A DNA stretch of 64,000 bases from Candidatus Daviesbacteria bacterium (GCA_028715175.1 JAQUSJ010000001.1:674386-738385), one strand, 5' to 3'. Numbered from the stretch's first letter, positions 9,262 through 63,153 are shown. The notes: generated by a model not told the origin, from the sequence alone. Made by a program: numbers and translations.

Positions 9262-9310
9262 CGTGAAGATCTTTCGCTACGCTCAGGATGATTTTGCAAG
9301 CAAAATCACC
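9262..9310. repeat. Family-A element copy (…GATCTTTCGCTACGCTCAGGATGAT + TTTGCAAGCAAAATCA palindrome) at the 3' end of the metallo-hydrolase gene
   Basis: Read directly. The element encodes the last residues …QVILLAKSS and supplies the TGA stop. Confidence 0.7.
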
Positions 9311-9942
9311 TGTGGTTTCTCCGGCAATCTGTCTTTGGTTATTGAGAGCTTGGGCTGAGAAACTACTCCTTCTGTTCCCATTTCTTTCAAAAAGCCTTCA
9401 ATTCCTTCAAGCTCAAATTTGACTCCTTCTAATTTGTAATGCATTGGGATAATAATTTTTGGTTCAAGTTGGGAAACAATATCCGAAGCCTCCTTAGCAT
9501 TGATCGTATAAATACCCCCAACAGGAATAAGCACAATATCTGTTTGACCGATCGCTGCAACTTGTTCCTCTGTTAACCTGGATTGCCCCAAATCCCCCAG
9601 GTGAACAATATCCAAACCGTCAAACAGTAAATGAAAAATGGTATTCGATCCTTTTTCGCTGCCTTCCGAGCGATCATGAAAAGAATTTAACCCTGTTATT
9701 ACAACCCCCAAAACTTCATATTCTCCGGGTTTACTAAAAACCATGGGAGCACTCCCTTGCAACGCTGTAACTGCGGAAATAAAGTTGTGATCTTTATGTT
9801 CATGAGTTGTTAAAACTACGTCGGCTTGCAAATCCCGAGGCAGTTTCAATCCTGTAAAGTCCGGGTCATACGGGTCAATCACTACAGTTGCATTTTTACC
9901 TTTTAATTTAAAACAGGATTGTCCATACCAGTAGATATCCAT
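9283..9942 (-). CDS. metal-dependent hydrolase, metallo-beta-lactamase fold (UPF0173-like)
   Basis: MDIYWYGQSCFKLKGKNATVVIDPYDP…LTTHEHKDHN… Start re-set to the internal Met at 9942; the long N-terminal extension in the ORF track is implausible. Confidence 0.7.
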   Translation of the reverse strand: MDIYWYGQSCFKLKGKNATVVIDPYDPDFTGLKLPRDLQADVVLTTHEHKDHNFISAVTALQGSAPMVFSKPGEYEVLGVVITGLNSFHDRSEGSEKGSNTIFHLLFDGLDIVHLGDLGQSRLTEEQVAAIGQTDIVLIPVGGIYTINAKEASDIVSQLEPKIIIPMHYKLEGVKFELEGIEGFLKEMGTEGVVSQPKLSITKDRLPEKPQVILLAKSS

Positions 9943-10459
9943 GGCAAGTTGCATACTAACAAATATGCTAAAATTGTTCAATAAGCGAAGTTTTAAAACG
10001 GAGCTTACAAACTTGTTTATAATGATGCAACTTAATCGAAAACTCACTACAAAACATCTTATTCTTTCCCAGATTCTAATCTTGATCATAGGTTTAACAT
10101 TTCTGGGAACACTTTATTTCATTTTAAATATCCAATATCAAAAACCTAAAAACCTTTTCTTGGTTGGACCGGTTACTACTCTTCCCAAAAGCTTACTGCT
10201 GGATCTTGGGACGCCTGACCAGGATACCTTATCTTTTTCATCTTCAATAATTGTGTCCGGCAAAACAGGACCAAAAAAGGACGTCTTAATCTCAACTGAT
10301 ACCCGCGACCTTGTAATCCAATCAAAAGCAGACGGCTCCTTTTCTACGGTTTTGAATTTAGATGAAGGCGTTAATACAATCAAAGTCGTTGTTTTTGATA
10401 CAACAGGTGAGGCAAGGTCTGCTGAACGTACAGTTTACTTCTCAAAGGAGAAAATATGA
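9941..10459 (+). CDS. hypothetical membrane-anchored protein
   Basis: A TM helix (ILSQILILIIGLTFLGTLYFIL) followed by a soluble domain. Overlaps the next gene by ATGATGA. The true start may be downstream (MMQLNRK). Confidence 0.4.
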   Translation: MASCILTNMLKLFNKRSFKTELTNLFIMMQLNRKLTTKHLILSQILILIIGLTFLGTLYFILNIQYQKPKNLFLVGPVTTLPKSLLLDLGTPDQDTLSFSSSIIVSGKTGPKKDVLISTDTRDLVIQSKADGSFSTVLNLDEGVNTIKVVVFDTTGEARSAERTVYFSKEKI

Positions 10460-11196
10460 TGAGAAAATTTACAATTTTAATCGCAATTTTTGCTTTTTCA
10501 TTCTACATTCTACATTCTACATTCTACATTCCGAGCGCGCTAGCGCTTGAATCCACTCCATCCGCCGATATAAAAACCAAACTTGAAGAACTGAAAAAAG
10601 AGATTGCTTCCAAAGCCGCCAAACTGAAACAAGACGTTAACCGCAAGCTAAAAGATAAAGCATACATAGGTAAAATTAAACAAAAATCTGACAATTCTGT
10701 AACTATCTCAACAGCATCTAATCCAAAAATGGTCAGTTTAAATCAGGATACTGTCTTTGAGAGCAAGATTAAATCAAAACAAAAGTTTTCTCAGAAAACT
10801 ATCTCCGAAGAAGATTATGTTGCTGCGCTGGGAGATGCCGATGAAACCGGAGTGCTAACTGCAAAAAAAATTATTCTGCTACCCCAGCCAAAGACTGATC
10901 TGCCTCTGGCGGAAAAAACTTATTTATGGGGCCAGGTAATTTCTATTTCGGATCAGTTGGTAACCTTAAAAAATAGCGAATCAAAGGTTGTTGCCGTATC
11001 TTTACCTTCTGTGTCTGGAATCAAATTAAACACCTTTGTTATATTAACAGGAAATCAAGACAAAAATGATATTTTTAAAGCTGGTTTTGTCTATATAATA
11101 CCCCAGGGCGGAGTTATTAAACCTAAAAAGATGGCAACGCCTTCTGCACAAACTGCCAGCCCGTCTGCTAAACCTGCCTCCAAAAAAGCTAACTAA
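10456..11196 (+). CDS. hypothetical secreted protein (signal peptide, lysine-rich, low complexity)
   Basis: N-terminal hydrophobic signal, partly encoded by a heptamer array, then a K/S/A-rich sequence. No domain recognised. Confidence 0.45.
   Translation: MMRKFTILIAIFAFSFYILHSTFYIPSALALESTPSADIKTKLEELKKEIASKAAKLKQDVNRKLKDKAYIGKIKQKSDNSVTISTASNPKMVSLNQDTVFESKIKSKQKFSQKTISEEDYVAALGDADETGVLTAKKIILLPQPKTDLPLAEKTYLWGQVISISDQLVTLKNSESKVVAVSLPSVSGIKLNTFVILTGNQDKNDIFKAGFVYIIPQGGVIKPKKMATPSAQTASPSAKPASKKAN
10499..10531. repeat. heptamer tandem array CATTCTA x4.7, in frame in the signal-peptide region
   Basis: Read directly; encodes FSFYILHSTFYIP. Confidence 0.8.
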
Positions 11197-14285: not shown

Positions 14286-15251
14286 TTGTCATCGAGGGGT
14301 ATAATAATAATCAATCCTATGAATAATTATATAGAGGAACAGATAAATAAATTAGATAAACAAATCGAGGAGATCAAACCACTTCTGCAGGATCCTGAAA
14401 TGGCTGATCTGGCCAAGGGAGAAATTAAAGATCTAGAACAGCAAAAAGCAGAATTAGAGTCATCAGCTTTCAGCTTTCAGTCGTCAGAAAATTCAGAAAG
14501 TCTGACAGCTGACAGCGAAGCGATACTGAAGACTGACAGCTGTATTCTAGAAATCAGGAGTGCTGCCGGAGGCGACGAGGCCGGACTTTTTGCCGGTGAT
14601 TTATTGCGGATGTACACAAGATTTGCTCAAAATAAAGGGTGGAAAGTTGAAGAATTAGACCGGTCTGAAGGAAAACTGGGGCAAGTGAAAGAAATTGTAC
14701 TCAAACTTTCAGGTAAGGGTTCATACAGCCATCTTAAATATGAATCCGGTGTTCACCGGGTACAAAGAGTACCCGTTACAGAATCCTCGGGTAGAATTCA
14801 CACCTCAACAGCCACAGTAGCAGTGCTCCCTGAAATTACCGATGCTCAAGTTACCATAAATCCCTCTGATATAGCATTTGAAGCTTTCCGCTCCGGTGGT
14901 GCTGGCGGCCAAAATGTTAATAAGGTTTCTACTGCCGTAAGGCTTACTCATATCCCAACCGGAATCATTGTAACCTGTCAAACCGAGAGATCACAACTCC
15001 AAAATAGAGAAAATGCCCTAAGTCTCCTTCGATCTAAGCTTTGGGAGGCAGAACAACAAAAAAAGACTGGCAAAGTTATGGAACAAAGAGCTGTTCAAGT
15101 AGGATCTGGTATGAGATCGGAGAAAATTAGAACATATAATTTTCCTCAAAACAGAGTAACCGATCATAGAATCAACAAATCATGGCATAATCTGGACAAT
15201 ATATTAGAGGGGGATCTGGATGACATCATCAAAGCCATATCAGTATGTTAA
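14286..15251 (+). CDS. prfA: peptide chain release factor 1
   Basis: [18 protein letters not shown] (PxT tripeptide region, RF1-type) and GGQ motif ([27 protein letters not shown]). The start may be the Met at 14319. Confidence 0.9.
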
Positions 15252-17044: not shown

Positions 17045-18265
17045 CTAATCCAAAAGCTCTATTGCTTTCTCAAGCTGCAGATCCTTTGTTGCATCTTCTT
17101 TGTCAGCCTCAATTATAACATCCGGATCTATGCCTTGGGAATCATTAACCCATCTGCCGTTTGGTGTTAACCACTTTGCTATTGTAATATGAATCCCTGC
17201 TCCGCCTGCAAGATCTTCAGCATTTTGGATAGTTCCTTTACCAAACGATTTTTCCCCAACCAACTTAGCCCGGCCTCGATCCTGAAGTGCACCTGCTACA
17301 ATTTCCGAAGCAGATGCCGAACCTTTGTTCACCAAAACCAGGAGTGGTATTTTTGTAAGTTTTCCTATTCTTGAAACTTTAAAAAGCGTCTTCGCTCCTT
17401 CACTATCTTCCTGCTGAACAACGCTTCCCCCTTCTAAAAACTCTGAAGCTATAAAAACTGCTCCATCCAAGAATCCGCCCGGATTATTCCGGAGGTCTAA
17501 GATAACTGCTTGCGATCCGGCAGCAAGTATCTCGGTAACCACGGAATTCCACTCATCTTCGGTCCTTTCTCCAAAACGGGATAATTTTATAATCGCCACT
17601 TTCTTTCCAAGCTTAGTTTCTTTGTAACTTACAGTTACACTTTTTACAACTATAGTATCTCTATCCAGGGTGAAAACTCTCGTATCAGATTCCCCTTCCC
17701 GGAAAATTGTTAAAGAAACCTTTGTTCCTTTTGGTCCTCTTATTAAATTTACAGCTTCCGGCAGACTTATCCCGGTTGTATCCTTATCGCCGATTTTAAC
17801 AATTGTATCTCCGGGCTCAATACCTGCTTTTAATGCCGGCGTACCATCAAGTGGAGCAACTACCACTAATCTCTTGTCTTTGTTAAAACCCAGCTGAATT
17901 CCTACCCCGTCAAAGCTGCCATTTAATTCTTCTTTAGAAAATTTTTGTTGATCAGGCGTCAAGAAAACCGTATAAGGATCTCCCAGCGAGGAAACCATTC
18001 CTGAAATAGCGCCGTAAAATAATTTATTGGGATCTATGGCTTTTTTATCAAGGTAGCTGCGGGACAAAAGATCCCAGGTGTTCCAAAATAATTTGAAATC
18101 TATATCAATATTTTTGGGAGGTTCTTTATTAACTATAGAGAGTGTCGGCCGGTAAGTTGCAAGCTTAAACTGTACATCCCGATGGCCCAATTGCCAACCC
18201 AGCAAAAAAGCCAAAATCAGAATCAAAACTATTTTTATATCTAAAGTTTTAAGGAAATTTCTCAT
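17045..18265 (-). CDS. ctpA: carboxyl-terminal processing protease (S41 family)
   Basis: PDZ domain plus LVNKGSASASEIVAGALQD with downstream K (S41 Ser/Lys dyad). N-terminal TM anchor. Confidence 0.85.
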   Translation of the reverse strand: MRNFLKTLDIKIVLILILAFLLGWQLGHRDVQFKLATYRPTLSIVNKEPPKNIDIDFKLFWNTWDLLSRSYLDKKAIDPNKLFYGAISGMVSSLGDPYTVFLTPDQQKFSKEELNGSFDGVGIQLGFNKDKRLVVVAPLDGTPALKAGIEPGDTIVKIGDKDTTGISLPEAVNLIRGPKGTKVSLTIFREGESDTRVFTLDRDTIVVKSVTVSYKETKLGKKVAIIKLSRFGERTEDEWNSVVTEILAAGSQAVILDLRNNPGGFLDGAVFIASEFLEGGSVVQQEDSEGAKTLFKVSRIGKLTKIPLLVLVNKGSASASEIVAGALQDRGRAKLVGEKSFGKGTIQNAEDLAGGAGIHITIAKWLTPNGRWVNDSQGIDPDVIIEADKEDATKDLQLEKAIELLD

Positions 18266-22553: not shown

Positions 22554-22610
22554 ACCTGGAAATTATAAGCAAAGCTTGAAATTTTCGCTACGCTCAAATT
22601 ATAACTTAAT

Positions 22611-38198: not shown

Positions 38199-39179
38199 TT
38201 AAATTATATCACGTAAATTATCCATAATTCTAAGGTTAACATTTTTTGTCATATCCGGAATAAACCTTTTACCAGTTATTTTTTCATAAATCCCCATGTA
38301 AAGCCTGCTCATTTTGGCAATAAAACTTGGGGGCATCTTGGGGATTTTTCCTTTGCCAGTATATCCATGCTCTTTAAACCAAATCCTAAGAGGCTCTTTG
38401 TCATAGCTTTCCGGCTCCAACCCTTTTTTAAATTTTTCATTGTAAGTTTTCTTGACCCAATATCTTGAGGAATCAGGTGTATGAAGTTCATCAACCAGCA
38501 TCAGTTCCCCTTCATTATCAAAACCAAATTCATATTTTGTATCAACTAAAATTATACCGGCCTTATCACAAATCTTTTGTCCTCTTGCAAACAAAGCCAA
38601 GGCTGCAGTTTCCATCTGTTTCCATATCGCCGGTGTCACAATTTTTCTTTGTATGATATCTTTTTCGCTTAATTTTTCATCGTGATGTCCTGATTTGGCT
38701 TTAGTGGTAGGAGTAATTACAGGTTTTGGCAACTTTTGGTTTTTTCTTAAACCTTCTGGAAATTTAATGCCGTAAATTACTCTTTCTCCTTTTTCATAAG
38801 ACCCCCAAATTGATGTATCTGTCACACCGGTGATATAACCTCGAACGACCATTTCAACAGGAATAACCTGGCAATTCTTAACTACCATTACATTTGGATC
38901 CGGCACACAAAGTAAGTGGTTTTGAATAATATCAGAAGTTTTATTAAACCAAAAAGCTGAAAGCTGATTAAGGACTTGCCCTTTAAATGGAATATAACCT
39001 AGGACATGATCAAAAGCAGATTGCCGGTCAGTGGTAATGATCACTCTTTTATCATCTAATTCATAACTGTCCCGGACTTTACCGCTATATTTCTTCCCCA
39101 AATTCGGGATATCAACTGTTTTAAGTACATGAGCGATGTTTTCTATAATTATTCTTTTAGCAACCATATCTTGCGTCAT
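38199..39179 (-). CDS. purC: phosphoribosylaminoimidazole-succinocarboxamide synthase (SAICAR synthetase, long form)
   Basis: …GKVRDSYELDDKRVIITTDRQSAFD… 326 aa. The ATG overlaps the purE stop as ATGA. Confidence 0.9.
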   Translation of the reverse strand: MTQDMVAKRIIIENIAHVLKTVDIPNLGKKYSGKVRDSYELDDKRVIITTDRQSAFDHVLGYIPFKGQVLNQLSAFWFNKTSDIIQNHLLCVPDPNVMVVKNCQVIPVEMVVRGYITGVTDTSIWGSYEKGERVIYGIKFPEGLRKNQKLPKPVITPTTKAKSGHHDEKLSEKDIIQRKIVTPAIWKQMETAALALFARGQKICDKAGIILVDTKYEFGFDNEGELMLVDELHTPDSSRYWVKKTYNEKFKKGLEPESYDKEPLRIWFKEHGYTGKGKIPKMPPSFIAKMSRLYMGIYEKITGKRFIPDMTKNVNLRIMDNLRDII

Positions 39180-39206
39180 TGCGAGGAGTGTAGCGACGTG
39201 GCAATC
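39174..39206. repeat. Family-A element copy (CGTCATTGCGAGGAGTGTAGCGACGTGGCAATC) spanning the purE/purC junction
   Basis: Read directly. Encodes the purE C-terminal …IATSLHSSQ, its TGA stop and the overlapping purC ATG. Confidence 0.75.
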
Positions 39207-43708: not shown

Positions 43709-44720
43709 CCAAAACTTCCTTTAGTCTATTCTGCTCTATAGCATTCTTTATCTCTCTTGCAATACGTCTTCCTGTTGACATTGGCTCTTCATAATTTAAA
43801 TACGTGTATGGGGAACCGTCAATAAAACAATTTGTTCCTGCCACAATTCGGGCAGAAATTTCGATTACATAAATCTCTTCTGTCGAGGTAATGATTGTCT
43901 CCAAACAAAATGGCCCAAAAAGCCCTTTTGCTGGCATCAATTTCTGAGATGTCTCAACCACCCTTTCTGCCATTGAGATTGCCTCGGGAAGTAGTGATTC
44001 TCTAATTGCCATAGGAATATTGGCAACTACTTCAAAAGACGGTTCTATATTTAAACCTCTTTGGTTTTTTGCAGGAATACGGCCTAGCGAGTCAACATTT
44101 GTTTCATATCGTTTGTCCAAACTCATCATCTCCACCTTTTTCGTTAAAGGCGAATAAAAGAAATGAAAATAAACAGGCACTCCGATAACATATTCCTGAA
44201 CCATAAACTTCTGTTCGCTGAAACTAATTAATTTGGTATCAAACTCTTTTTGATTTCTGGCAGTGAAATAACCCTTGCCTCCTGCCGCCCCGTATGATTT
44301 AACGATAACCGGACGGTCTATTTTATCTCCTCTTTTGAAAAGATGAGGAACTTTTATTCTTGCTTTCTCCATCCACTTCCTTTGCATTTTGCGGTTTTCT
44401 TCCCAATCCAAAACTTTCTTATTGCCAAAATATAAAGTCTTCATACTTTTATTATTGTCCATACCTAAATAGGCCACAAATGAGCCATGTGGAATTATGA
44501 TGGCATTTCTTTTTAGAAGTTCTTTTTCTAACTTAAGAAAATCGCTCCATCTATCAATTTCTAAAATCTCATCAATAAAATTACCGTAAGATTTATAAAG
44601 CGGAATTCTGTCTTTAGTGGAAACTACTGCAGTTTTAAAGCCTTCATCTTTTGCCCCTTTGAGGATTTGCAGGGCGGAGTGAGAACCTAAAGTTACAATT
44701 GTATGGTTTATGATTCCCAT
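43701..44720 (-). CDS. purP: 5-formaminoimidazole-4-carboxamide ribonucleotide (FAICAR) synthetase, archaeal-type PurP
   Basis: MGIINHTIVTLGSHSALQILKGAKDEGFKT…IIPHGSFVAY…YFGNKK…YFHFFYSPL…DKRYETN…GRIPAKNQ…NIPMAIRESLLP…GPFCLE… Near-colinear similarity to archaeal PurP over the full length. Confidence 0.8.
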   Translation of the reverse strand: MGIINHTIVTLGSHSALQILKGAKDEGFKTAVVSTKDRIPLYKSYGNFIDEILEIDRWSDFLKLEKELLKRNAIIIPHGSFVAYLGMDNNKSMKTLYFGNKKVLDWEENRKMQRKWMEKARIKVPHLFKRGDKIDRPVIVKSYGAAGGKGYFTARNQKEFDTKLISFSEQKFMVQEYVIGVPVYFHFFYSPLTKKVEMMSLDKRYETNVDSLGRIPAKNQRGLNIEPSFEVVANIPMAIRESLLPEAISMAERVVETSQKLMPAKGLFGPFCLETIITSTEEIYVIEISARIVAGTNCFIDGSPYTYLNYEEPMSTGRRIAREIKNAIEQNRLKEVLDE

Positions 44721-44795
44721 AGCTTATTATAACTAACATGCATTAAAATTACAAATTTTTGTTAGTTACAGTCTTCCGCAGGAAGTATATATTAA

Positions 44796-46205
<1,410 letters not shown>

Positions 46206-46206
46206 T

Positions 46207-47805
46207 TTATTCCCATTCCATAGTGGCCGGGGGTTTGTTGGTGATATCGTAAACCACACGGTTTACTTCACGAACTTCATTTACAATTCTTGTTGAAATT
46301 TTTTCTAAAAGATCAAAAGGAAGTTTAGCAAAATTGGCAGACATGGCATCTTGGGCTTCAATGGCTCGAATAGCAATTGTTTCCCCATACGCTCTTTCGT
46401 CTCCTCTGACTCCTGTTGTTTTAATTCCTGTAAAAATTGCAAATACTTGCCAAAGATTTTTAGCTAAATCAGTTTTTTCAATTTCCTGCTGAATAATTTT
46501 ATCTGCTTTTCTTAAAATTTCTAATTTCTTTTCAGTAATTTCACCAATAATTCTTACTGCCAATCCCGGTCCTGGAAAAGGTTGTCTATTTAAAATTTGC
46601 TCAGGCAATCCCAAAATCTTCCCAATTTTCCTGACTTCATCTTTATAAAAATTCCTTAAGGGTTCTATTAAAACAAGATTCATTTTTTTAGGTAAAGCCC
46701 CGACATTATGATGTGATTTAATCACTCGTGCATGTTTGGTGCCGGCACTTTCTATCACATCAGGATAAATGGTACCTTGGACCAAAAATTTTGCTCCACT
46801 TTCTTTAGCTAATCTTTCAAAAACCTCAATAAAAATTTTGCCTATTACTTTTCTTTTTTGTTCAGGATCTGCTACCTCTTTTAATGCTTTTAAGAATTCT
46901 TTTTTTGCATCTATAATTTTTATATCCATATTGTAATGTTTGGCAAAAACCCCTCTTAAGGTATCTGTCTCACCATCTCTCATCAATCCCGAATCTATGT
47001 AATAACAAGTTAAATTTTTACCAATGGCTTTATAAACTAAAAGAGCAGCTACCGAAGAATCCACCCCGCCAGACAGTGCGCATATTGCTTTTTCTCTTCC
47101 TACAGAATCTTTAATATCGGAAATTATATTTTCTACAAATTTTTCATCTATTGTTGATCTTTTGGGATTTAATCCGCAGATCTTTAAAAAATTTTCCAAA
47201 ATTTCTGTTCCAAATTCCGTATGCATAACTTCGGGATGAAACTGTATTCCATATATTTTTTTATTTTTATTTTCCACAACAGCATGAGGAATTGTTTTTG
47301 TAGTAGCAATTGTCTCAAAATTCTCTGGTATTTTAACGACCTCATCACCATGACTCATCCAAACCGTGATACCACTTGGAACTGTGGATAATAAATTAGA
47401 AGATTTTTTTATAGTAAGTTCTGCCGGACCATATTCTTTTTTATACCCTGGTTTAACTTCGCCACCCAAAAGCTGACACATTAACTGTTGTCCGTAACAA
47501 ATACCTAAAATTGGAATACCTAACTCAAATATTTTTTTGTCAATTGTCGGCGCGCCTTTTTCATAATCGCTTGCGATTATATCGCGACGCTTCTTGTAAC
47601 GCGGTGCGTTATAAACAGATGCTGGCCCTCCTGAAAATATTATTCCTTTTACTTTCTTGTCATTCTGGAGCCCTTCGCTACGCTCGAGGGTAAACTCCGC
47701 GATAGAATCTTCCGGTGCAACAATTTCACAATCCACCCCCAACTCTCTTATTCTTCTCCCAATCAAATGCGCTGTTTGCGATCCAAAATCAACTAAGACA
47801 ATCAC
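46207..47805 (-). CDS. guaA: GMP synthase (glutamine-hydrolysing), with in-frame palindromic insertions in the GATase domain
   Basis: MIVLVDFGSQTAHLIGRRIRELG…, GICYGQQ (catalytic Cys), SGGVDSS PP-loop, C-terminal …PPATMEWE. Confidence 0.9.
   Translation of the reverse strand: MIVLVDFGSQTAHLIGRRIRELGVDCEIVAPEDSIAEFTLERSEGLQNDKKVKGIIFSGGPASVYNAPRYKKRRDIIASDYEKGAPTIDKKIFELGIPILGICYGQQLMCQLLGGEVKPGYKKEYGPAELTIKKSSNLLSTVPSGITVWMSHGDEVVKIPENFETIATTKTIPHAVVENKNKKIYGIQFHPEVMHTEFGTEILENFLKICGLNPKRSTIDEKFVENIISDIKDSVGREKAICALSGGVDSSVAALLVYKAIGKNLTCYYIDSGLMRDGETDTLRGVFAKHYNMDIKIIDAKKEFLKALKEVADPEQKRKVIGKIFIEVFERLAKESGAKFLVQGTIYPDVIESAGTKHARVIKSHHNVGALPKKMNLVLIEPLRNFYKDEVRKIGKILGLPEQILNRQPFPGPGLAVRIIGEITEKKLEILRKADKIIQQEIEKTDLAKNLWQVFAIFTGIKTTGVRGDERAYGETIAIRAIEAQDAMSANFAKLPFDLLEKISTRIVNEVREVNRVVYDITNKPPATMEWE
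47564..47611. repeat. cluster of small GC-rich palindromes (ATAATCGCTTGCGATTAT; AACGCGGTGCGTT) in frame in guaA
   Basis: Read directly. Encodes …NAPRYKKRRDIIASDYEK…, not expected in the GATase domain. Confidence 0.6.
47658..47709. repeat. Family-A element copy in frame in guaA (TGTCATTCTGGAGCCCTTCGCTACGCTCGAGGGTAAACTCCGCGATAGAATC)
   Basis: Read directly; encodes …SIAEFTLERSEGLQNDKK…. Confidence 0.7.
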
Positions 47806-48590: not shown

Positions 48591-51466
48591 GAAAACATCT
48601 CCTTCATTGGTTTCTGCCAGACTTTTTTCAAATTTGGAACTTCCGCACTAAAGAAATTCTTAACATCAATAATAGGAGCTTTTTGTGTTTTACCTAAAGT
48701 TATGTAAGGAATATTTTTGAATAATTGTTTGGCAACTTTTTCATCTTTCACCTCAACAATAAAACATCCTGTTGTCTCATTAAATAGCAACTCACTCACC
48801 TCCGAGGAACCCATTCGGCCACCTCGGAGGTGTGACGAAGTTACTCCTCCGAGGTGGATATTTACCCCGCAATTTCCCCCAACACACATCTCAAAAATAG
48901 CTGAAATTACCCCACCTTCAGATATATCATGACATGACAATATTTGTCCATTTCGTATTCCCTTGTAGATTGCATCAAAAGTTTTTGGCAGTAACTTTAG
49001 GTCTATTCTTGGAACAGAATCTGTCTCCAGATTATTTACTTGATGATATACAGATCCTCCTAAATTCTTATCCATTTCCCCAACCAAAACAATTGTTGAA
49101 CCGACCTTTTTCAAATCGGCAGTAACAGTCTTTCTTGTATCCTCTATTTTCCCTAGAACCGAAATGCAAAGCGTTGGTGGAATTTTAATAACGCTTCCAT
49201 CTGCCCCACGGTAAGTTGAAGACAGGCTATCTTTACCGGAAATCACCGGAATTTTAAAAATTTTCATAAAATCCACCACCGCATCAACTGATCTATCAAG
49301 CGACCAAAGAGACTCTTGATCTGGAAAAGGCCAAATATAATTGTTTATTAAAGAAGCATTTTTGTAGTCTCCGCCAACTGCGACAAAATTTGATAAGGCT
49401 TCAGTCGCTGCCCAGATACTTCCCCAGTATGGATCTATATTATTAAAAACCGGATTTAATCCGTGTGAAATAATCATGCCATATTGTTTGGAAAGTACGG
49501 GACGCAAAACCGGAGAATCATTAGGCCCATCTAAATTTTTTCCTGAATATGGCTGAAGGTCATTTGTTCCCTGAACTAAATGGTCATACAACCGGACAAT
49601 TGGCTCTTTTGAACAGACATTTCCGTGAGATAATACTTTTCGCAAAACCTTGATCCATTCTTCCTCTGATTTTGGTTGTATTGGTTCTTTGATCTGACGA
49701 CTGACGACTGACGACTGACGACTTGCTTTCAAAACCCGTTTCGGCAACCCATGGTGCAAAAACTGCATATCCAAATGGCCCACTACTTTACCACCAAAAT
49801 AAACTTTTAATTTTTTACTGCCATCAAATTTTCCTAAAACCGTACTTTCAACATTATATTTTTTACAGATCATTTCAAAAACCTTAAGGTTTTTCGGATC
49901 CAATACTACAATCATTCTTTCCTGTGATTCTGACAAAAAAATTTCCCAGGGAGCTAAACCTTGATATTTTAAAAGGGCATTTTTTATGTCAACCGTAACT
50001 CCTAAAGTTTCACCAATCTCGCCAATGGCAGATGAAAATCCTCCTCCGCCGCAATCTTGCACTAACCTTATTAAATCTTGATCTCTTGCTTCAAGCAGCG
50101 CATCAAACATCCGTTTTTCTTCAATTGCGTTTCCGATTTGCACTGCCGAAGAGTGTGTCGTATAAGTATCTGCAGTCATTTCCCCGGACGAAAAGGTAGC
50201 ACCATGAATCCCATCCCTGCCAGTTCTACCCCCTACACAAATTATTAAATCATTTCTTTCAGGTTTATCTTTTATCGCATATTTTTTTGGCACTATTCCA
50301 TATGCTCCTACAATAACCGTTGGTCTAGCCCTAAAATCTTTGTGAAAATGGACTGATCCGTTATTAGTAGGAATCCCCATTCTGTTTCCGTAATCCCTTA
50401 CCCCTGAAACTACTCTTTTCAATAAATATTCCGGTGGAAGACATCCTGCTGGTAACTGGGAAGCCGGCAAATCAATCGGAGCAAAACAAAAGATATCTGT
50501 TGAGGCAATATTTTTGGCTCCTTTACCTGTTGCAGCAATGTCGCGGAACACTCCGCCTGATCCGGTCATCGCTCCACCATATGGCTCAATAGCTGATGGA
50601 GCATTATGGGTTTCGACTTTACCACAAATCCCAAAACCGCCGTAGAAATCCATCACACCCGAATTGTCAACAAATGCTGAAACAATATTTTTATCATGCT
50701 TTAGCGCTTCTTTTTTCAATCTATCAATGAGCGGCTCTTTCTTTTTTCCATCAACTAATAACTCAGCTTTAAAAGTTTTATGCCCCGAGTGTTCACTCCA
50801 AGTTTGGGCTAAAGTTTCCAGTTCTAAATCAGTGGGGTCCCTTTTTTCTGCTGCAAAATATTCTTGGATCTTTTTCATCTCTTCCAAATTAAGAAAAAGC
50901 TGATCTTTAGATAAATCCCGCAACTCTTGATCATTCAAACTTCTTATAGGAATTGTTTGAATTTTGCCAGGTTGTCCTTTCAAAATAAGCGTTTGCGGCT
51001 CATCTTTCACGATATGCTCGATAAGCGAGTTATAGAGTTTCAGTTTTTCTACGATCTTTTCGACTTCTGCTTTTTTTAAGCTTCCGTAAAATGCATACTC
51101 AAAGGATGAATCGCATGCCGGCAGTTTAATTCCCAAATCATCTGCAGCTTTGATAATGGATGTAACTTCCGGATTCATCACCCCTGGCTTGTAAGCTATT
51201 TCAATAATCACAGACTTCACCTCCGAGGTGGGCTTTGACTCCTCGGAGGTGGAATTAATCGTATATCTTTGATTAATTGATTCAGATAATAATTTTTCAG
51301 CCAAAATTTTGGCCTCTTTTTCAGATATTCCTTCCAATCTATAAACTTTGATCGCAGAAACTCTGGTAATATTTTTAATTCCCAACATCCGATGGATGTC
51401 ATTTAAGATACCATCTCCTTTTAAATCTGGTCCAACTATTGTTTGTACTCTGACTTTTTGTATCAT
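48587..51466 (-). CDS. purL: phosphoribosylformylglycinamidine synthase: tandem PurS-PurS N-terminal domains fused to PurL (FGAM synthase II)
   Basis: Two PurS-like ~75-aa modules at the N-terminus, then a small-PurL body. 959 aa. Family-B palindromes in frame at 51218..51252 and 48797..48857; heptamer array at 49694..49721. Confidence 0.9.
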   Translation of the reverse strand: MIQKVRVQTIVGPDLKGDGILNDIHRMLGIKNITRVSAIKVYRLEGISEKEAKILAEKLLSESINQRYTINSTSEESKPTSEVKSVIIEIAYKPGVMNPEVTSIIKAADDLGIKLPACDSSFEYAFYGSLKKAEVEKIVEKLKLYNSLIEHIVKDEPQTLILKGQPGKIQTIPIRSLNDQELRDLSKDQLFLNLEEMKKIQEYFAAEKRDPTDLELETLAQTWSEHSGHKTFKAELLVDGKKKEPLIDRLKKEALKHDKNIVSAFVDNSGVMDFYGGFGICGKVETHNAPSAIEPYGGAMTGSGGVFRDIAATGKGAKNIASTDIFCFAPIDLPASQLPAGCLPPEYLLKRVVSGVRDYGNRMGIPTNNGSVHFHKDFRARPTVIVGAYGIVPKKYAIKDKPERNDLIICVGGRTGRDGIHGATFSSGEMTADTYTTHSSAVQIGNAIEEKRMFDALLEARDQDLIRLVQDCGGGGFSSAIGEIGETLGVTVDIKNALLKYQGLAPWEIFLSESQERMIVVLDPKNLKVFEMICKKYNVESTVLGKFDGSKKLKVYFGGKVVGHLDMQFLHHGLPKRVLKASRQSSVVSRQIKEPIQPKSEEEWIKVLRKVLSHGNVCSKEPIVRLYDHLVQGTNDLQPYSGKNLDGPNDSPVLRPVLSKQYGMIISHGLNPVFNNIDPYWGSIWAATEALSNFVAVGGDYKNASLINNYIWPFPDQESLWSLDRSVDAVVDFMKIFKIPVISGKDSLSSTYRGADGSVIKIPPTLCISVLGKIEDTRKTVTADLKKVGSTIVLVGEMDKNLGGSVYHQVNNLETDSVPRIDLKLLPKTFDAIYKGIRNGQILSCHDISEGGVISAIFEMCVGGNCGVNIHLGGVTSSHLRGGRMGSSEVSELLFNETTGCFIVEVKDEKVAKQLFKNIPYITLGKTQKAPIIDVKNFFSAEVPNLKKVWQKPMKEMFS
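48797..48857. repeat. Family-B palindromic element cluster (CACCTCCGAGG / CCACCTCGGAGGTG / CCTCCGAGGTGG), in frame in purL
   Basis: Read directly; encodes …HLGGVTSSHLRGGRMGSSEVSE…. Confidence 0.75.
49694..49721. repeat. heptamer tandem array CTGACGA x4, in frame in purL
   Basis: Read directly; encodes …SRQSSVVSRQ…. Confidence 0.8.
51218..51252. repeat. Family-B palindromic element (CACCTCCGAGGTGGG-N8-CCTCGGAGGTGG), in frame between the two PurS modules of purL
   Basis: Read directly; encodes …TSEESKPTSEVKS…. Confidence 0.75.
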
Positions 51467-51470: not shown

Positions 51471-52802
51471 TCATCCTTTTTTACCTCGCCGTAGCGTCTC
51501 GCGAAGACGGGCTACATCCCTCCAGCCAATATCTGTTCTATAGTGTAAATTATTTCCTTCAATGTTAACTTTTCTCAATGCCCGATATGCCCTCTCTCTT
51601 GCCTCTATCACATTTTTTCCCTCATCCATCACAAACAAAATCCTACCCCCCGCTACCATATAACCCCCATTAACTTTTTTAATACCAGCCCCGTAAATTT
51701 TGGCTTCAGCCTTAATAGCTTTATCAATTCCAAAAACTTTTTTACCTTTAACTGATTGATAATCAACAGGATAACCTTTTGCCACTGCCGCTACCACTAC
51801 CCTTACCTTTTTATCTATCTTCAAATTTAATTTTCCAATAGTACCATTGATAATATCCTGGCTGACCTCATATAAATCATTTTTAATACTCGGTAAAATG
51901 ACCTCTGCTTCAGGATCTCCCCATCTGGCATTGAATTCTATAACAAAAACCGCTCCTCTAATCACAATGCCCCCTAAATATAAAACCCCCTTGTATGGTC
52001 GCCCATCTATCTTTAACCCATCCACAGCCTTTTTGAAAATTTCCTTGACTTGTTTCCTGATATTTTCATCAACAATTAACGGGTTTGAAACACAACCCAT
52101 TCCTCCGGTATTTGGACCTTCATCACCATCAAATACTTGCTTATGATCTTGTGCAAAACCCACTACTTGAAAATTTTTCCCATCACACAGTGCAAAAGCG
52201 GAAAACTCTTCACCGATTAACCACTGCTCCAAAAGATAAGTCTCTCCACTTTTACCAAATCTCGCCATTTGTTTTATAGCATCAATTGCCTGACGCCCAT
52301 TTTTTGCAGGAATTGCTCCCTTGCCTTCCGCCAGCCCTGATGCTTTAACAAACCAACTAGCTTTAGATTTGCTATTTACAAACTTAATCCCATCTTTTGT
52401 TGATGAAAAAACATGATAGTCAGGAGAGGGAATTTGATACTTTTTCATAAAACCCCTGGCCCATGCTTTATCCCACTCAAGCTGTCCGGCTTTTTTGGTT
52501 GGTCCCACTACCTTAATTCCCTCCGCCAGTAAAGTATCTGCTAAACCTGCTTCCACTGCATTATCTTGTGCAACATCTACCAAATCAACTTGCTCTTTTT
52601 TGCAAATTTCCAATATTTCTTTAATGCTGGTTGTTTTTAAGTATTGGTAAGTTACAACCGGCTTTTTAGTATTAATCTGCATTAAATCATTTCCCGGTAC
52701 CACTAGAATTTTTCCCACACGTTTGCTTTGTCCATACTTATCTACTAGAGTTGCACCTCTTCCTCCCCCATCTATTATCATTATTGTCTTTAATTTATTC
52801 AT
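51471..52802 (-). CDS. purD: phosphoribosylamine--glycine ligase
   Basis: MNKLKTIMIIDGGGRGATLV…, ATP-grasp. 443 aa. The C-terminal …RLRETLRRGKKG overlaps a degenerate Family-A-like GC-rich motif at 51476-51512. Confidence 0.9.
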   Translation of the reverse strand: MNKLKTIMIIDGGGRGATLVDKYGQSKRVGKILVVPGNDLMQINTKKPVVTYQYLKTTSIKEILEICKKEQVDLVDVAQDNAVEAGLADTLLAEGIKVVGPTKKAGQLEWDKAWARGFMKKYQIPSPDYHVFSSTKDGIKFVNSKSKASWFVKASGLAEGKGAIPAKNGRQAIDAIKQMARFGKSGETYLLEQWLIGEEFSAFALCDGKNFQVVGFAQDHKQVFDGDEGPNTGGMGCVSNPLIVDENIRKQVKEIFKKAVDGLKIDGRPYKGVLYLGGIVIRGAVFVIEFNARWGDPEAEVILPSIKNDLYEVSQDIINGTIGKLNLKIDKKVRVVVAAVAKGYPVDYQSVKGKKVFGIDKAIKAEAKIYGAGIKKVNGGYMVAGGRILFVMDEGKNVIEARERAYRALRKVNIEGNNLHYRTDIGWRDVARLRETLRRGKKG

Positions 52803-54809: not shown

Positions 54810-54871
54810 AGTTTAATATAACTATTTTGGCCTCGAAAGTCAAGTGTCTCACAAAATGGTATACTTAAATC

Positions 54872-57679: not shown

Positions 57680-59080
57680 TCACAACTTACTAATAATTCT
57701 AGGACCAGCTGAGGTATCCTCTATCTCATATCCTAATTTTTTGATTCTGTGACGGAGTTGATCAGATTCTTTAAAATTACCTGCTTTTCTGGCTTGCTCC
57801 CGCTTTTCAACCAATTCCATCACGTTTTTAGGGACTTCTATTGATTTGCCTAAATATTCATCTAATTTTAATCCCAAAATTTTATCCATTTCCAAAATAC
57901 TTTTGGCTTTGGCAGATGTTGGACACTCGGATCTAACCATATCCCACATCACAGCCAGTGCTTGTGGCATATTTAAATCATAATTTAGCGCATCCATAAA
58001 TTTTTGATAATAAGATTGCCACGCCCCTTCGGGGCTCGCAATGACAGAAGAAGGTAAATCTCGGATAATCTCCCTTAAATTATCCAAGGCATTTTGGGCT
58101 GCCTCCAAACTTTTCCAGGTAAAATTTAATTTATCTCTATAATGGGCTGTTAAAAACAAGTACCTGAGAGCCAGTGGGTCAAATCCTTTCTGTTCTATTT
58201 CATCTATTTTATAAAAATTCTTTTTTGATTTACTCATTTTTTCTCCATCAACCAATAAAAATTCAAAGTGCACCCAGAATCTTACAAACTGCTTTCCTGT
58301 AGCTGCCTCACTTTGAGCAATCTCATTTGTGTGATGTACTGGAATATGATCAATACCTCCTGTATGAATATCAAGGCAGTCATCCAGATATTCCATACTC
58401 ATAGCAGAGCACTCAATATGCCAGCCGGGAAATCCCTCGCCCCAGGGAGACGGCCACCTCATGCTATGGTCTTTAAAATGCCCTACTGTAAAAAACCAAA
58501 GCGCAAAATCATACGGGTTTTTCTTTTGCTTATCTACCACCACATCAACCCTTACTCCAACTTGCTTTTCCTGCAATTTTTGTCCTGATAATTCTGTATA
58601 GTTTGGAAATTTACTTATATCAAAATAAACTGCCTGGTCTGTTTGATAAATAAAACCGTTTTTTTCTAACTTATGAATTAATTTAATCTGTTCTGCAATA
58701 TGATCTGTAGCTTTAGCAACAATACTTGGTCTTTCTATATTAACCGTATCAACCGATTTCCAAAAATAATCTTCAAAGAATTTGGCAACTTCCCAGACAG
58801 TTCTACCGAATTCCCTTGCTCCTTTTTCCATTTTATCCTCACCCGAATCTTCGTCAGAAACCAAATGTCCCACATCAGTGATATTCATCACATGTTTAAC
58901 TTCATATTTATTAGCTTCCAGAATTCTTCTTAAAATATCGTTGCCTACATATGTACGAAGGTGACCAATATGGGTATAGTCGTAAACAGTTGGTCCGCAA
59001 GAATACATACCCACCTTAGGTGGATTTAAAGGAGCAAATTTTTCAATCTTTCGGCTTAATGTATTATAGAGGTTTAACAT
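57680..59080 (-). CDS. cysS: cysteine--tRNA ligase
   Basis: HIGH (YTHIGHLRTYV), KMSKS (KMSKSKKN), zinc-binding Cys (YSCGPTVY) and the CysRS anticodon-binding C-terminus. 466 aa. Confidence 0.9.
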   Translation of the reverse strand: MLNLYNTLSRKIEKFAPLNPPKVGMYSCGPTVYDYTHIGHLRTYVGNDILRRILEANKYEVKHVMNITDVGHLVSDEDSGEDKMEKGAREFGRTVWEVAKFFEDYFWKSVDTVNIERPSIVAKATDHIAEQIKLIHKLEKNGFIYQTDQAVYFDISKFPNYTELSGQKLQEKQVGVRVDVVVDKQKKNPYDFALWFFTVGHFKDHSMRWPSPWGEGFPGWHIECSAMSMEYLDDCLDIHTGGIDHIPVHHTNEIAQSEAATGKQFVRFWVHFEFLLVDGEKMSKSKKNFYKIDEIEQKGFDPLALRYLFLTAHYRDKLNFTWKSLEAAQNALDNLREIIRDLPSSVIASPEGAWQSYYQKFMDALNYDLNMPQALAVMWDMVRSECPTSAKAKSILEMDKILGLKLDEYLGKSIEVPKNVMELVEKREQARKAGNFKESDQLRHRIKKLGYEIEDTSAGPRIISKL

Positions 59081-60846: not shown

Positions 60847-60900
60847 AATTAGTTATTGGTTGGTAGTTATGAGTTCGTAGTGATTTATTATTTTTTCTAT

Positions 60901-60928
60901 GAACTACGAACTATGAACTCTGAACCCT
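60901..60928. repeat. heptamer tandem array GAACTMY x4 at the 3' end of folD
   Basis: Read directly. Encodes the folD C-terminal …RRVQSS and its TAG stop. An inverted partial copy (GAGTTCGTAG) lies at 60871..60880. Confidence 0.8.
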
Positions 60929-61753
60929 CCTTGCTGATTCTATCACATTTTCCAAAAGCGACACAATTGTTAAAGGCCCAATTCCGCCGATAGTCGGACA
61001 ATACAATTTGGCTTTTTGAGAAACTGTCGCTTCCTCAATATCACCAAAGATTTTTTCTTCTTGATCTACTAATTCTTTTCCCACCCCAACTCCAATTACG
61101 AAACTGCCTTTTTTAATTTTTTCTCCTGTGATAATGTTCTTTCTTCCTGTTGCAGATATTATTACATCAGCATTTTTAATTAGTTTATCAGGATTTTCTG
61201 TTTTGGAATCAATCAAAGCAAAAAATATGCCCTTCTCTTCTAATAAGCCTCTAATTGGTCCACCAGCAGTTTTTCCTTTTCCCAAAAGAACTATACTTTT
61301 GCCTTTTAAAAATTTTTCTGCAGAAGAAAATCCTTCCAAGGAAGCAAAAGCCTTCAGCATTTCCCAGACAGCCAATGCTGTAGCCCCTCTATAGGGGGAA
61401 TCATTGCGGAATCCATCTACGTCTTTTCCGGAATCGATTTTGGAAATTAGATTATCAAAATCCCAATCCTCATATGTTGGATATTGGACAATTATTCCAT
61501 GAATCTTTTTGTCCTCATTTAATTTTTGTATCGCCATTAAACAATCATTAAATTGATTCCGGGAGAATTCAAGCAGCCGTGTTTTAATACCAAGTTGCTG
61601 CGCTCTTTTGATCTTGTTATTTACATAAATCCTGGATGCAGGGTTATTTCCTGCTAAAATTATTGCCAAGCAGGGTTTAATTTTTAATTTTCCTACTTGT
61701 TTTTTTAAGTTTTTTGAAATAGCATCTGCAACGTCTTTTCCGGATACTTTCAC
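60911..61753 (-). CDS. folD: bifunctional methylenetetrahydrofolate dehydrogenase / methenyl-THF cyclohydrolase
   Basis: …CLAIILAGNNPASRIYVNNKIKRAQQLGI… and NAD(P) Rossmann domain VVLLGKGKTAGGP. 280 aa. Confidence 0.9.
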   Translation of the reverse strand: MKVSGKDVADAISKNLKKQVGKLKIKPCLAIILAGNNPASRIYVNNKIKRAQQLGIKTRLLEFSRNQFNDCLMAIQKLNEDKKIHGIIVQYPTYEDWDFDNLISKIDSGKDVDGFRNDSPYRGATALAVWEMLKAFASLEGFSSAEKFLKGKSIVLLGKGKTAGGPIRGLLEEKGIFFALIDSKTENPDKLIKNADVIISATGRKNIITGEKIKKGSFVIGVGVGKELVDQEEKIFGDIEEATVSQKAKLYCPTIGGIGPLTIVSLLENVIESARRVQSS

Positions 61754-61755
61754 TT

Positions 61756-63060
61756 TTATTTGATCCCTGGAACCGGAAATTTTCCGGCAAATTTTTCAAC
61801 TTCTTTTCTGATTATTTTAAGATTTTTGTTTTTGTGAATTTCTTTTTTAACTTCCTTTAAAAAATCTTTTCTTTTTTCCTGCTCTTTTGGCAAATCAAGA
61901 CCTCTTATCTCTTCCAAAACTCTTTTGATCCAACCGGCAATTTTAATCATATCACTGGCTTTCATTCCTCTTGAAGTTAGTGCCGGTGTCCCCAGACGAA
62001 TACCTGAAGGATAAAAAGGAGAAGCCGGTTCACCGGGGATTGTATTTTTGTTAACTGTAATCCCTGCTTCTTCCAGTGCATATTGCGCCTGATATCCCAT
62101 TCCATATCCGTATTTGGTTAAACTTAAAAGTATCAGGTGAGTTTCCGAAACAGTACCTAGTTCTTTCGCCAAAACCGATGCATTTTTGGCAATTTGAGCA
62201 GCGTATTTCTTAAATGAAGGTTTCAAAGCCTCTTCCAAACTGACAGCGATTGCTGCTGTTTGGTGATTATGCGGACCTCCCTGGATACCGGGAATTATTG
62301 CCCTTTCTATTTTCCCTTTTATTTCCGGATCTCTTTTTAACCCTCGCTCCGTTACTAAAATCATCGCCCCTCTCGGACCTCTTAATGTCTTATGCGTTGT
62401 CGTCATAACTATATCAACATAAGGCACCGGTGATTCATGTACGCCACCTATTATTAACCCTGTGATATGCGAACAGTCCGCAACAAGCGTTGCATCAACC
62501 ATATCAGCGATTTTTCTAAATTTTTTGTAATCCAGCTTAAAAGGGTATGCTGTTGTTCCCACCCAGATTAATTTTGGTTTGTGCTTTTTGGCCAAAGTTT
62601 CTAACTCTTTGAAATCTATTTTCCAATCTTTGCCAACAGAATAGTTGACTGCCTTATAAAAAATACTGGAAAAACTTAAATGAGCACCGTGAGTTAAGTG
62701 TCCTCCTGAGGATAGTGCAAGCCCCATTACCACATCCCCCGGCTCACAAACTGCCATAGTAATTGCCATATTTGCCGGAGAACCGGAGTAGGATTGTACA
62801 AATGCGGCTGGAACTCCGAATAATTTTTTTGCCAAATCTACTGCATAACTTTCAATTTTATCTATAACTTCATTACCGCCATAATACCTTCTGCCCGGAA
62901 AACCTTCCGAGTACTTATTAGTCAAAATTGAACCCAAAGCTTTTAGAACATCAGAAGAAACATAGTTCTCAGAAGGTATCATTTCCAAGCCGTATTTCTG
63001 TCGGTAAGCTTCTTCCGCAATTAACTTAAATACCTTTTTTGTAGCAACGTGTGATGACAT
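61756..63060 (-). CDS. glyA: serine hydroxymethyltransferase
   Basis: …GLEMIPSENYVS… and the PLP-lysine region TTTHKTLRGPRGAMIL. 434 aa. Confidence 0.9.
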   Translation of the reverse strand: MSSHVATKKVFKLIAEEAYRQKYGLEMIPSENYVSSDVLKALGSILTNKYSEGFPGRRYYGGNEVIDKIESYAVDLAKKLFGVPAAFVQSYSGSPANMAITMAVCEPGDVVMGLALSSGGHLTHGAHLSFSSIFYKAVNYSVGKDWKIDFKELETLAKKHKPKLIWVGTTAYPFKLDYKKFRKIADMVDATLVADCSHITGLIIGGVHESPVPYVDIVMTTTHKTLRGPRGAMILVTERGLKRDPEIKGKIERAIIPGIQGGPHNHQTAAIAVSLEEALKPSFKKYAAQIAKNASVLAKELGTVSETHLILLSLTKYGYGMGYQAQYALEEAGITVNKNTIPGEPASPFYPSGIRLGTPALTSRGMKASDMIKIAGWIKRVLEEIRGLDLPKEQEKRKDFLKEVKKEIHKNKNLKIIRKEVEKFAGKFPVPGIK

Positions 63061-63124
63061 GAATGAAAGTATTGTTGACTACAAAACGTTAATTGTCAAT
63101 ACTTCACTTCAACTTTGTTCAGTA

Positions 63125-63153
63125 TTGACCCTGAGCGAAGCCGAATGGGTCAA
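63125..63153. repeat. Family-A element copy (TTGACCCTGAGCGAAGCCGAATGGGTCAA), intergenic upstream of glyA
   Basis: Read directly. A neighbouring AAGTATTG…CAATACTT hairpin lies at 63068..63103. Confidence 0.65.

Follow-up and report, generated by a model that had tools for sequence, protein, structure and literature searches.

What kind of element is a hairpin of some 20-24 bases that recurs at gene ends, in spacers and inside genes of a small bacterial genome? The question is raised by a 64-kb stretch of a Candidatus Daviesbacteria genome (candidate phyla radiation, CPR, or Patescibacteria), hereafter the window, which has a G+C content of about 38% and most of its genes on the minus strand. 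It belongs to a contig of about 744 kb, and its M1 aminopeptidase and GlyA are 100% identical to NCBI proteins labelled Candidatus Daviesbacteria. An earlier note on this DNA had listed five copies of a putative family resembling repetitive extragenic palindromic (REP) sequences, and every cited sequence was found at its coordinates. The repeat family is real: dispersed, hairpin-forming, REP-like and strongly over-represented, with a repeat unit of about 20-24 bases built around a near-fixed core.

A dispersed family of hairpins with a near-fixed core

The core GAGCGWAGYN{0,1}GAA has six exact matches in the 64 kb, in both orientations, against an expectation of 0.02, and none of 100 shuffled sequences reaches six. 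With at most two mismatches, TGAGCGWAGYSGAAKG is matched four times where 0.13 matches are expected. A covariance model (R1) built from 41 units, including seven arms from the window as training sequences, recognises nine arms with E <= 3e-4 at eight loci; among them are both arms of the element at 44834-44919, which lay outside the training alignment. The high abundance and REP-like character claimed by the earlier note are thus borne out, and within the window the family is not what shuffled sequence would yield, a doubt that the same note had raised. Local duplication, its other doubt, does not explain the family, since further copies occur at other loci of a sister genome (L283, at 4608 and 11090) and the core is also found in unrelated taxa. 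Copies in the window are spread over 59 kb in unrelated contexts. The copy at 22578 recurs unchanged in L287, which comes from an independent assembly of this organism based on another sequencing run, and is therefore not an assembly artefact.

Four of the five copies first listed are members. The fifth, at 51476-51512, is unrecognised by R1 (no match at E <= 10) and its fold is no better than those of shuffles. The range 9262-9310 does hold a family member, though not the single unit for which it had been taken: it covers the left arm of an imperfect palindrome of 69 nt (9224-9292), the minus-strand arms of which are ATCATCCTGAGCG...CTTAGAATGAC (also given as ATCATCCTGAGCGTAGCGAAAGATC...GATTCTTTGGCTAATCGCCTTAGAATGAC), and it takes in an adjacent small palindrome, GATTTTGCTTGCAAAATC, as well. 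The description of each copy as a short hairpin fits the one at 63125-63153 well (seven perfect base pairs; z -3.1 as DNA, -3.5 as RNA), that at 37186-37215 with one mismatch, and that at 22578-22602 poorly, its stem being limited to 5 bp of A/T (-1.4 kcal/mol).

The module is met in three forms. It stands alone in the bare units at 4496, 22576, 37186 and 63124; it forms an arm of GTCAT-tagged half elements at 39175, 58011 and 47659, the last of which, in guaA, holds an inner 24-nt unit, TTTACCCTCGAGCGTAGCGAAGGG, within a GTCAT-type outer arm; and two inverted tagged units surround extra hairpins in the composites at 5489-5582, 6105-6180, 9224-9292 and 44834-44919. The DNA fold of the last composite reaches -20.9 kcal/mol (z -6.4). 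By our own count, five of six short or arm units that can be assigned to a gene are in sense orientation and five of seven lie on the minus strand, neither figure being significant.

At its simplest, the module is a hairpin of about 20 nt in which a short variable stem carries a cap that hardly varies, (C)CCTGAGCG-W-AG(Y)CGAAGG(G). The conserved part, TGAGCGWAGYGAAGG, had been proposed to be an open loop serving as a recognition site. The 17-mer CCTGAGCGWAGCGAAGG is however predicted to fold as (((..((...))..))), in which CCT/AGG is followed by a 2x2 internal loop (5'-GA/3'-AG), then by two G-C pairs and, at the tip, by a GNA triloop, and the supposed loop is probably a structured cap made up of tandem G.A pairs and a GCGNAGC mini-hairpin. 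A K-turn reading of the GA/AG motif was rejected, as no 3-nt bulge was seen when the sequence was judged by eye. GCGNAGC is an experimentally characterised DNA mini-hairpin of extraordinary stability (Kimoto and Hirao 2026, PMC13037366), and the cap centre is exactly GCGAAGC or GCGTAGC in four of the six core matches in the window. The mini-hairpin d(GCGAAGC)/d(GCGNAGC) is a structural motif and not a repeat family, and it is by likeness that we infer a role for it in the Daviesbacteria repeat. The ability of the cap to pair with itself suggests that the feature under selection is probably a compact hairpin in single-stranded DNA.

The stems covary. The pair adjoining the 17-mer is formed in 39 of the 41 units, and all four Watson-Crick types are used (C-G 14, U-A 14, G-C 6, A-U 4); covariation as high as this is not reached in any of 500 shuffles, and slid controls collapse. 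In 106 distinct viral copies, among the matches listed, the flanks extend the stem by 1.9 bp on average, against 0.49 with shuffled partners. Moreover, when 81 GTCAT-type Daviesbacteria units were chosen by their left arm only, the left 5-mer was mostly followed downstream by its reverse complement: ATCCT/AGGAT in 16 of 21, ATTCT/AGAAT in 19 of 21, ATTGC/GCAAT in 17 of 22 and ATCGC/GCGAT in all three. Among stem mispairs G.T and A.C are equally common (16 of each), and there is therefore no sign of selection on one transcribed strand.

Presence and absence at orthologous sites and within proteins

Syntenic loci were compared from a sister genome (GCA_028712705.1; L201 and L283), from another assembly (L284) and from about 25 metagenomic Daviesbacteria in which the purine cluster is conserved. 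The sister genome shares 87-96% nucleotide identity with the window over most aligned blocks and 74-82% where inserts differ. Between these close relatives the repeat is polymorphic for presence and absence.

Two of the differences are clean gains of 24 nt. At the convergent junction of prs and the purM-like gene, overlapping stop codons around a TTA are found in seven related loci, which amount to six distinct sequences because L227 and L228 are identical, the junction reading AAATTAACG in L203, L204 and L209. The window instead reads AAA-TTA-GTCCTTCGACTACGCTCAGGA-TTA-ACG, a gain flanked by TTA/TAA; at the same point L229 holds a different mini hairpin, likewise between TTA and TTA. Upstream of efp, the sister locus L201 passes from CCGCAGG directly into TGTCAATAC, where the window has CCGCAGG, then CCTGCCCTGAGTGAAATCGAAGGG, then TATCAATAC. 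Nearby, a 130-residue open reading frame (ORF) on the minus strand (4546-4938) includes three perfect 21-nt tandem repeats (4727-4799) and has only weak, coiled-coil-like Pfam matches; a block of about 440 nt around it is missing in the sister genome between the M1 peptidase gene and efp.

Other junctions differ between relatives as well. The spacer between dnaB and the MBL-fold gene is 31 nt long and without an element in L201, where the MBL-fold protein has another C-terminus; in the window the last codons of this gene are replaced by the 9224-9292 element, and its stop codon is the TGA inside CCTGAGCG (9285-9283). The dnaX/glyA hairpin at 63125 is identical in the sister genome (L283) and missing in L284, the GlyA of which is 94% identical. 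Upstream of purA the site is empty in 16 relatives, whereas L236 carries a simpler, 58-nt version of the 44834-44919 element and L205 and L206 hold another subfamily at the same point. The 32-nt half element at the purE/purC junction is missing in every relative listed. Conversely, at the end of folD the sister genome (L283) has a unit that provides the TGA stop within CCTGAGCG. Elements therefore provide the stop codons of the MBL-fold gene, of PurE and, in L283, of folD. Sister-genome copies include a composite element at L283 4608 and a further copy at L283 11090.

Sigma-70-type promoters adjoin some of the elements (44721-44834 and 63071-63099); they are well conserved and retained in relatives, the gene at 43701-44720 having TTGACATTTGGTAGTCTATTTAATATA and glyA having TTGACA-17-AACAAT, and the insertions seem to avoid them. 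Junctions also hold heptamer-type tandem repeats (60852-60933, at the end of folD in the window; L202 7744-7860), of the types GTTCAGA/GTTCATA/GTTCGTA... and GTTTTCG/GTTTTCT..., and similar heptamers occur at 14458-14488 and 49693-49723. At the positions of heptamer repeats close relatives have hairpin elements or nothing; the turnover of junction filler is very fast. A further difference is a 1.4-kb insertion in the sister genome (L283 17073-18438) with a HicA/HicB toxin-antitoxin pair and a 250-residue ORF, which the window lacks at 54845-54857.

Inside genes, in-frame insertion of the kind known from Rickettsia palindromic elements (RPE), variable among orthologues, is seen in the M1 aminopeptidase, GuaA, CysS and the C-terminus of PurD. 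This behaviour is that of the whole family; the four short copies are themselves intergenic. Orthologues of the M1 aminopeptidase, 727-925 residues long, have different inserts or none at two loops: at the site of 5489-5582, which is translated in frame into a peptide including ...QND..., the sister genome holds a different element, and the 6105-6180 element is missing there, with variation among the other orthologues. In GuaA orthologues the element is missing or replaced by other palindromic inserts in the same loop. A second GuaA insert of 16 residues (YNAPRYKKRRDIIASD; 47560-47620, minus strand), encoded by a different small palindrome-like stretch (CGCGACGCTTCTTGTAACGCG), is missing in all relatives compared. 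PurD orthologues end in ...DIGWRDVERMK and a stop, where the window has 33 additional nucleotides in frame (51476-51512), and L223 carries a large GTCAT-type element at the same C-terminal junction. Orthologue lengths vary widely in Daviesbacteria (YchF 353-405 residues; M1 peptidase 727-925 residues), a sign that palindromic inserts in frame may be widespread in the proteome of this clade.

The cap is compatible with translation in two frames, CCT GAG CG. yielding PER... peptides and ..C CTG AGC yielding LSE/LSV... ones. The third frame gives TGA and would be viable only near the 3' end of a gene, the very place at which copies now act as stop codons; the frames would thus account for where the copies stand. 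Coordinates and contexts of all copies are collected in Table 1.

Table 1. Copies of the hairpin family in the window, related elements and one in-frame gain of another kind.
Feature	Position	Strand	Context	R1 E-value and remarks
Short unit GCCTGCCCTGAGTGAAATCGAAGGGT	4496..4524	-	upstream of efp	9e-5; absent from the earlier note's list
Composite palindrome, two inverted GTCAT units	5489..5582	-	in frame, M1 aminopeptidase gene	8e-8 and 0.07
Related superfamily member (GTCATCGCGAGCGAAGCGTGGCGATC...CTCACAATGAC)	6105..6180	-	in frame, M1 aminopeptidase gene	
Composite palindrome	9224..9292	-	between dnaB and MBL-fold gene	1e-7; fold z -2.6 as RNA
Short unit AATTTGAGCGTAGCGAAAATT	22576..22604	-	just 3' of tspO stop, upstream of ychF	2e-6
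Short unit TTAATCCTGAGCGTAGTCGAAGGACTAA	37186..37214	+	between convergent purM-like and prs genes	1.6e-4
Related half element GTCATTGCGAGGAGTGTAGCGACGTGGCAATC	39175..39206	+	purE/purC junction	lengthens PurE, provides its TGA stop
Composite palindrome, nested central hairpins	44834..44919	+	upstream of true purA start (44929)	both arms matched
In-frame element (...FTLERSEGLQND...)	47659..47700	-	guaA	1e-5
33-nt in-frame gain (...VARLRETLRRGKKG, then stop)	51476..51512	-	PurD C-terminus	different small hairpin
Related half element GTCATTGCGAGCCCCGAAGGGGCGTGGCAATC	58011..58045	-	in frame in cysS	
Short unit TTGACCCTGAGCGAAGCCGAATGGGTCAA	63124..63152	+	between dnaX stop and glyA promoter	2e-5

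Abundance, spread and a possible mode of movement

The subfamily is unevenly distributed. R1 has nine hits in the 64 kb of the window (0.14 per kb) and three in the 20 kb of the sister-genome locus L283 (about 0.15 per kb), but 18 in 854 kb of related Daviesbacteria (0.02 per kb) and three in 1.52 Mb of other CPR, Chloroflexi and others (0.002 per kb). The density in the window and sister genome is about seven times that in other Daviesbacteria, although this difference is perhaps somewhat inflated: speed filters were switched off for the window and left at their default for the other sets, and the window count includes the seven training arms. The 1.5-Mb background consists of contigs from a search with the M1 peptidase, with three close relatives among the matches listed. 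On these counts the pattern looks like a recent burst in one sub-lineage and not like a local duplication. The wider GTCAT superfamily is scattered in Daviesbacteria with many variants of the cap.

Beyond this group, the 17-mer and the 20-mer CCCTGAGCGWAGY(N)GAAGGG each have at least 120 matches in IMG/VR. In the viral copies among the matches listed, the four nucleotides 5' of the 20-mer are non-random, CCTG being found in 18, GTCA in 13, TTCG in 9 and TTTA in 3 of 111; the 4496 copy of the window is of the CCTG type (GCCTG-CCCTGAG...GAAGGG), which recurs in viral contigs. In many viral contigs with the 17-mer an CCTGAGCGAAGCGAAGG hairpin is followed directly by short tandem repeats, for example tctcg x4, ggtgaa x4, tgtggg x5 or tctct x5 (IMG/VR L002, L013, L050, L059, L078, L086, L089, L095, L106 and L119). 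The tagged unit is also present on plasmids of Planktothrix, Gloeothece, Nostoc, Hymenobacter, Phocaeicola and Granulicella. On the Planktothrix agardhii plasmid NZ_LR882964.1 (L288, 15335-15602) an annotated coding sequence for an MmeI-type restriction-modification protein contains several GTCATCCTGAG...CTCAGAATGAC units and tandem ...GCTCAGAATGACA... pieces, all in frame. Chloroflexi appear to have large families of their own built on CCCTGAGC...CGAAGGG.

The copies can be regarded, with moderate confidence, as a non-autonomous, REP/RPE-like mini insertion element. The observations behind this reading are over-representation, covarying stems, gain and loss at orthologous sites, a lineage-specific burst and spread across phyla. 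The module would usually be gained as a 24-nt piece and would be moved in trans by way of a hairpin intermediate of single-stranded DNA, through the action of either an unlinked HUH-type transposase or a replication or repair activity of the host. Preferred landing places would be gene junctions, the apical loops of other palindromes and the surface loops of proteins. Insertions of 24 nt would survive by keeping the reading frame, with two of the three cap frames open and the third ending in TGA, and any effect on transcript ends would be secondary.

Several observations weigh against this reading. No transposase, integrase, HUH or RAYT (REP-associated tyrosine transposase) gene was found among the window ORFs of at least 100 residues with Pfam matches, all of which are housekeeping genes (including a purine biosynthesis cluster, dnaB, dnaX, glyA, folD, cysS, efp and ychF), and neither a transposase nor a RAYT was among the genes called in neighbouring loci totalling about 100 kb. 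The flanking repeats of the two clean gains (37186 and 4496) are ambiguous and only 2-3 nt long, so that target-site duplication is not established, and both 24-nt gains could have come by recombination or gene conversion from other copies. For the 22578 copy none of the relatives offers an informative empty site, the best of them (L286) having a different gene neighbourhood. Units do lie within the loop of an outer GTCAT...ATC hairpin (L297, L299, L348, L373, L001, L052 and the guaA copy), but a flanking helix of at least 6 bp surrounds 16% of units against 9% in shuffles, and support for nested insertion into outer hairpins is modest. Finally, nearest-neighbour energies are unremarkable for most short units; the argument from stability therefore relies on the published mini-hairpin measurements and not on a computation of our own, and such energies probably underestimate the DNA hairpin formed by the cap.

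Could the copies instead be functional RNA hairpins, that is, terminators, 3'-end stabilisers or RNase sites kept at gene ends by selection? This seems unlikely. It would account for the position of the four short copies directly 3' of stop codons or between genes, for the TTTCTTTCTT that follows the 37186 copy on the plus strand, for the 63125 copy, which separates the dnaX stop from the conserved glyA promoter and is retained in the sister genome, and for RNA folds that beat shuffles (z -3.5 at 63125, -2.6 at 9224-9292). However, units also stand in frame inside essential genes, and the orthologous junctions in relatives mostly do without a hairpin, some having overlapping stops. The 63125 copy is antisense to both flanking genes, whereas the others are mostly sense, and the equal numbers of G.T and A.C mispairs lack the strand-specific wobble signal that a transcript would leave. 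The suggestion of a small RNA or known RNA motif made in the earlier note finds no support in the Rfam 15 covariance models, with which only a tRNA in the window reaches the gathering score and nothing is found at the elements at E <= 5. Nor is any family copy among the window's terminator-like sites by intrinsic-terminator criteria (G+C-rich stem, loop of 3-8 nt, T-run), and none was called terminator-like in the consensus scan.

It is quite improbable that the cap is a host DNA signal, either a protein-binding site or a single-stranded initiation or priming hairpin such as those built on GCGAAGC in phage G4 and plasmid ssi sites, that would have spread for its usefulness in replication or in organising the chromosome. 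GCGNAGC mini-hairpins do occur at replication and transcription origins (PMC13037366), phage contigs hold many copies, and the cap is near-invariant across phyla while its stems vary. Yet the positions of copies are not conserved even at 87-96% nucleotide identity, both orientations occur, most related Daviesbacteria have almost no copies and no cognate protein was identified. That there is no meaningful family, but chance likeness of short G+A-rich strings, local duplication or an assembly artefact, as the shortness of the units and the cited non-member at 51476-51512 might invite one to think, can be dismissed as extremely improbable in view of the six exact core matches against 0.02 expected, R1 E-values down to 1e-7, copies in unrelated contexts over 59 kb, the same copy in an independent assembly and the core in hundreds of unrelated contigs.

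These elements alter the ends of genes and the loops of proteins in a genome of about 1 Mb: C-termini are changed, stop codons supplied and essential enzymes lengthened by inserts of 8-30 residues. Gene calling, orthologue alignment and protein-length statistics in CPR genomes are affected in consequence, and the elements mark very recent change between the genomes of near-identical CPR lineages in a clear and datable way.

Relation to known repeat systems

By their sequence features the copies would be mini palindromes of the REP, RPE or MITE (miniature inverted-repeat transposable element) kind. The kind is known already; a literature search found no description of REP or RPE elements in CPR genomes. 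In the same search, exact repeat strings were met only as primers, apart from one consensus discussed below.

REP, bacterial interspersed mosaic elements (BIME) and REP doublets forming hairpins (REPIN) are short extragenic palindromes, often in inverted pairs, that are mobilised by RAYT (PMC2817692, PMC3116915, PMC3337134). This form, over-representation, placement downstream of genes and lineage-specific bursts are common to them and to the window family. The GTAG tag at the 5' end of the REP palindrome has no counterpart here, GTAG occurring only in the cap centre (GCGTAGC), where it alternates with GAAG. Moreover, the window family is often in frame, and no RAYT gene was found in the window or its neighbouring loci.

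A closer parallel is provided by the CGTC/TGTC-tagged REPs, whose stems start with AT, which form head-to-head dimers, include RPE-4, RPE-6 and Neisseria dRS3, and come without a dedicated transposase (Di Nocera et al. 2013, PMC3733652). Their stems are 8-9 bp and their loops 4-5 nt long, with an unpaired 3' tail fitting CCA (PMC3733652). The larger relatives in the window carry TGTC (5581, 6180, 44835, 44918, 47659 and 58045) or CGTC (39175); the tag is degenerate (AATC) at 9292 and missing in the short copies at 22578, 37186, 63125 and 4496. Stems of the window relatives start with A-T and covary (GTC-ATCCT...AGGAT-C), and the composites at 5489-5582, 6105-6180, 9224-9292 and 44834-44919 have the inverted-dimer organisation, the short copies being monomers. 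Both groups occur at gene ends and in frame inside genes, and no dedicated transposase is known for either. However, the window stem is broken by tandem G.A pairs, its triloop is a 3-nt GNA instead of 4-5 nt, its tails are CTC or CTT (ATCTC, ATCTT) and do not fit CCA, and its CPR host belongs to a phylum outside the survey list of PMC3733652. The family probably works like REP and RPE and is a probable distant relative of the CGTC class; because loop, tail and G.A interruption differ and four short copies lack the tag, membership is not proven.

The palindromic elements of Rickettsia, reportedly described by Ogata and colleagues in 2000 and 2002 and by Claverie and Ogata in 2003, are said to be about 100-150 bp long and to lie in frame in surface loops of unrelated housekeeping genes of a small genome. 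In-frame palindromes and presence or absence among close relatives are common to both systems. The basic unit of the window is much shorter (20-24 nt), its sequence is unrelated to RPE-1, and the copies first listed here are mostly at junctions and seldom inside genes. The SDR (small dispersed repeats) of Nostoc, which Elhai and colleagues are said to have reported in Genome Research in 2008, are reportedly mobile hairpins of about 21-27 nt nested in other repeats, with no known transposase. They resemble the window family, by description, in size, nesting and lack of a known transposase, and differ in host phylum.

By sequence, the closest named element is Bpu of Cycas and Ginkgo mitochondria (Chaw et al. 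2008), the consensus of which, AAGGTTATCCCTTTCCTGAGCGTAGCGAAGGGAAGG, quoted in PMC8297867, contains the core CCTGAGCGTAGCGAAGG. Bpu is 36 bp long and present in hundreds of dispersed copies, with short direct repeats, AAGG, at its ends, as well as a Bpu10I site, CCTGAGC (PMC8297867). The 17-nt core CCTGAGCGTAGCGAAGG is common to Bpu and the family, window copies differing slightly (CCTGAGCGTAGCGAAAG at 9277, CTCGAGCGTAGCGAAGG at 47678). Bpu differs in its plant-organelle host and its longer left arm (TTATCCCTTTCC). Nowhere in the window does the 36-bp consensus occur in full, and AAGG terminal repeats are not seen at window copies (TTA/TAA at 37186, GG at 4496); they occur only in the Dehalococcoidia locus L175, where AAAG-TTTACCCTGAGCGTAGTCGAAGGG-AAGG, found twice, closely parallels the Bpu layout and has a TTTACCC left end in common with the guaA copy of the window. 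The same locus (17560-17900, chromosome OZ240221.1) holds a dense cluster of related repeats (CGCTCACCCTGAGC..., GTCATTCCCGTGCCCCT...), in which 111 nt separate two Bpu-like units. The literature search yielded no publication that connects Bpu with bacteria. The likeness may reflect common descent or convergence on a stable hairpin.

A bolder proposal, and a doubtful one, is that the cap, (C)CCTGAGCGWAG(Y)CGAAGG(G), 17-24 nt long, is a minimal mobile module common to CPR, Chloroflexi, cyanobacteria, phages and, as Bpu, gymnosperm mitochondria. A single common mechanism, transposase-independent or trans-acting, would recognise GCGNAGC in single-stranded DNA and prefer the apical loops of palindromes and gene junctions. 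If this were true, the cap module would be among the smallest mobile DNA units known, and an organellar repeat family would be linked to a bacterial and phage source. What merits further attention is the identity of the cap across domains, along with the possible mobile module of 24 nt. Together with the phage copies and the stability of GCGNAGC, the likeness of the core to Cycas Bpu offers a handle on how mini repeats without a transposase, such as CGTC-type REPs, RPEs, SDRs and Bpu, move.

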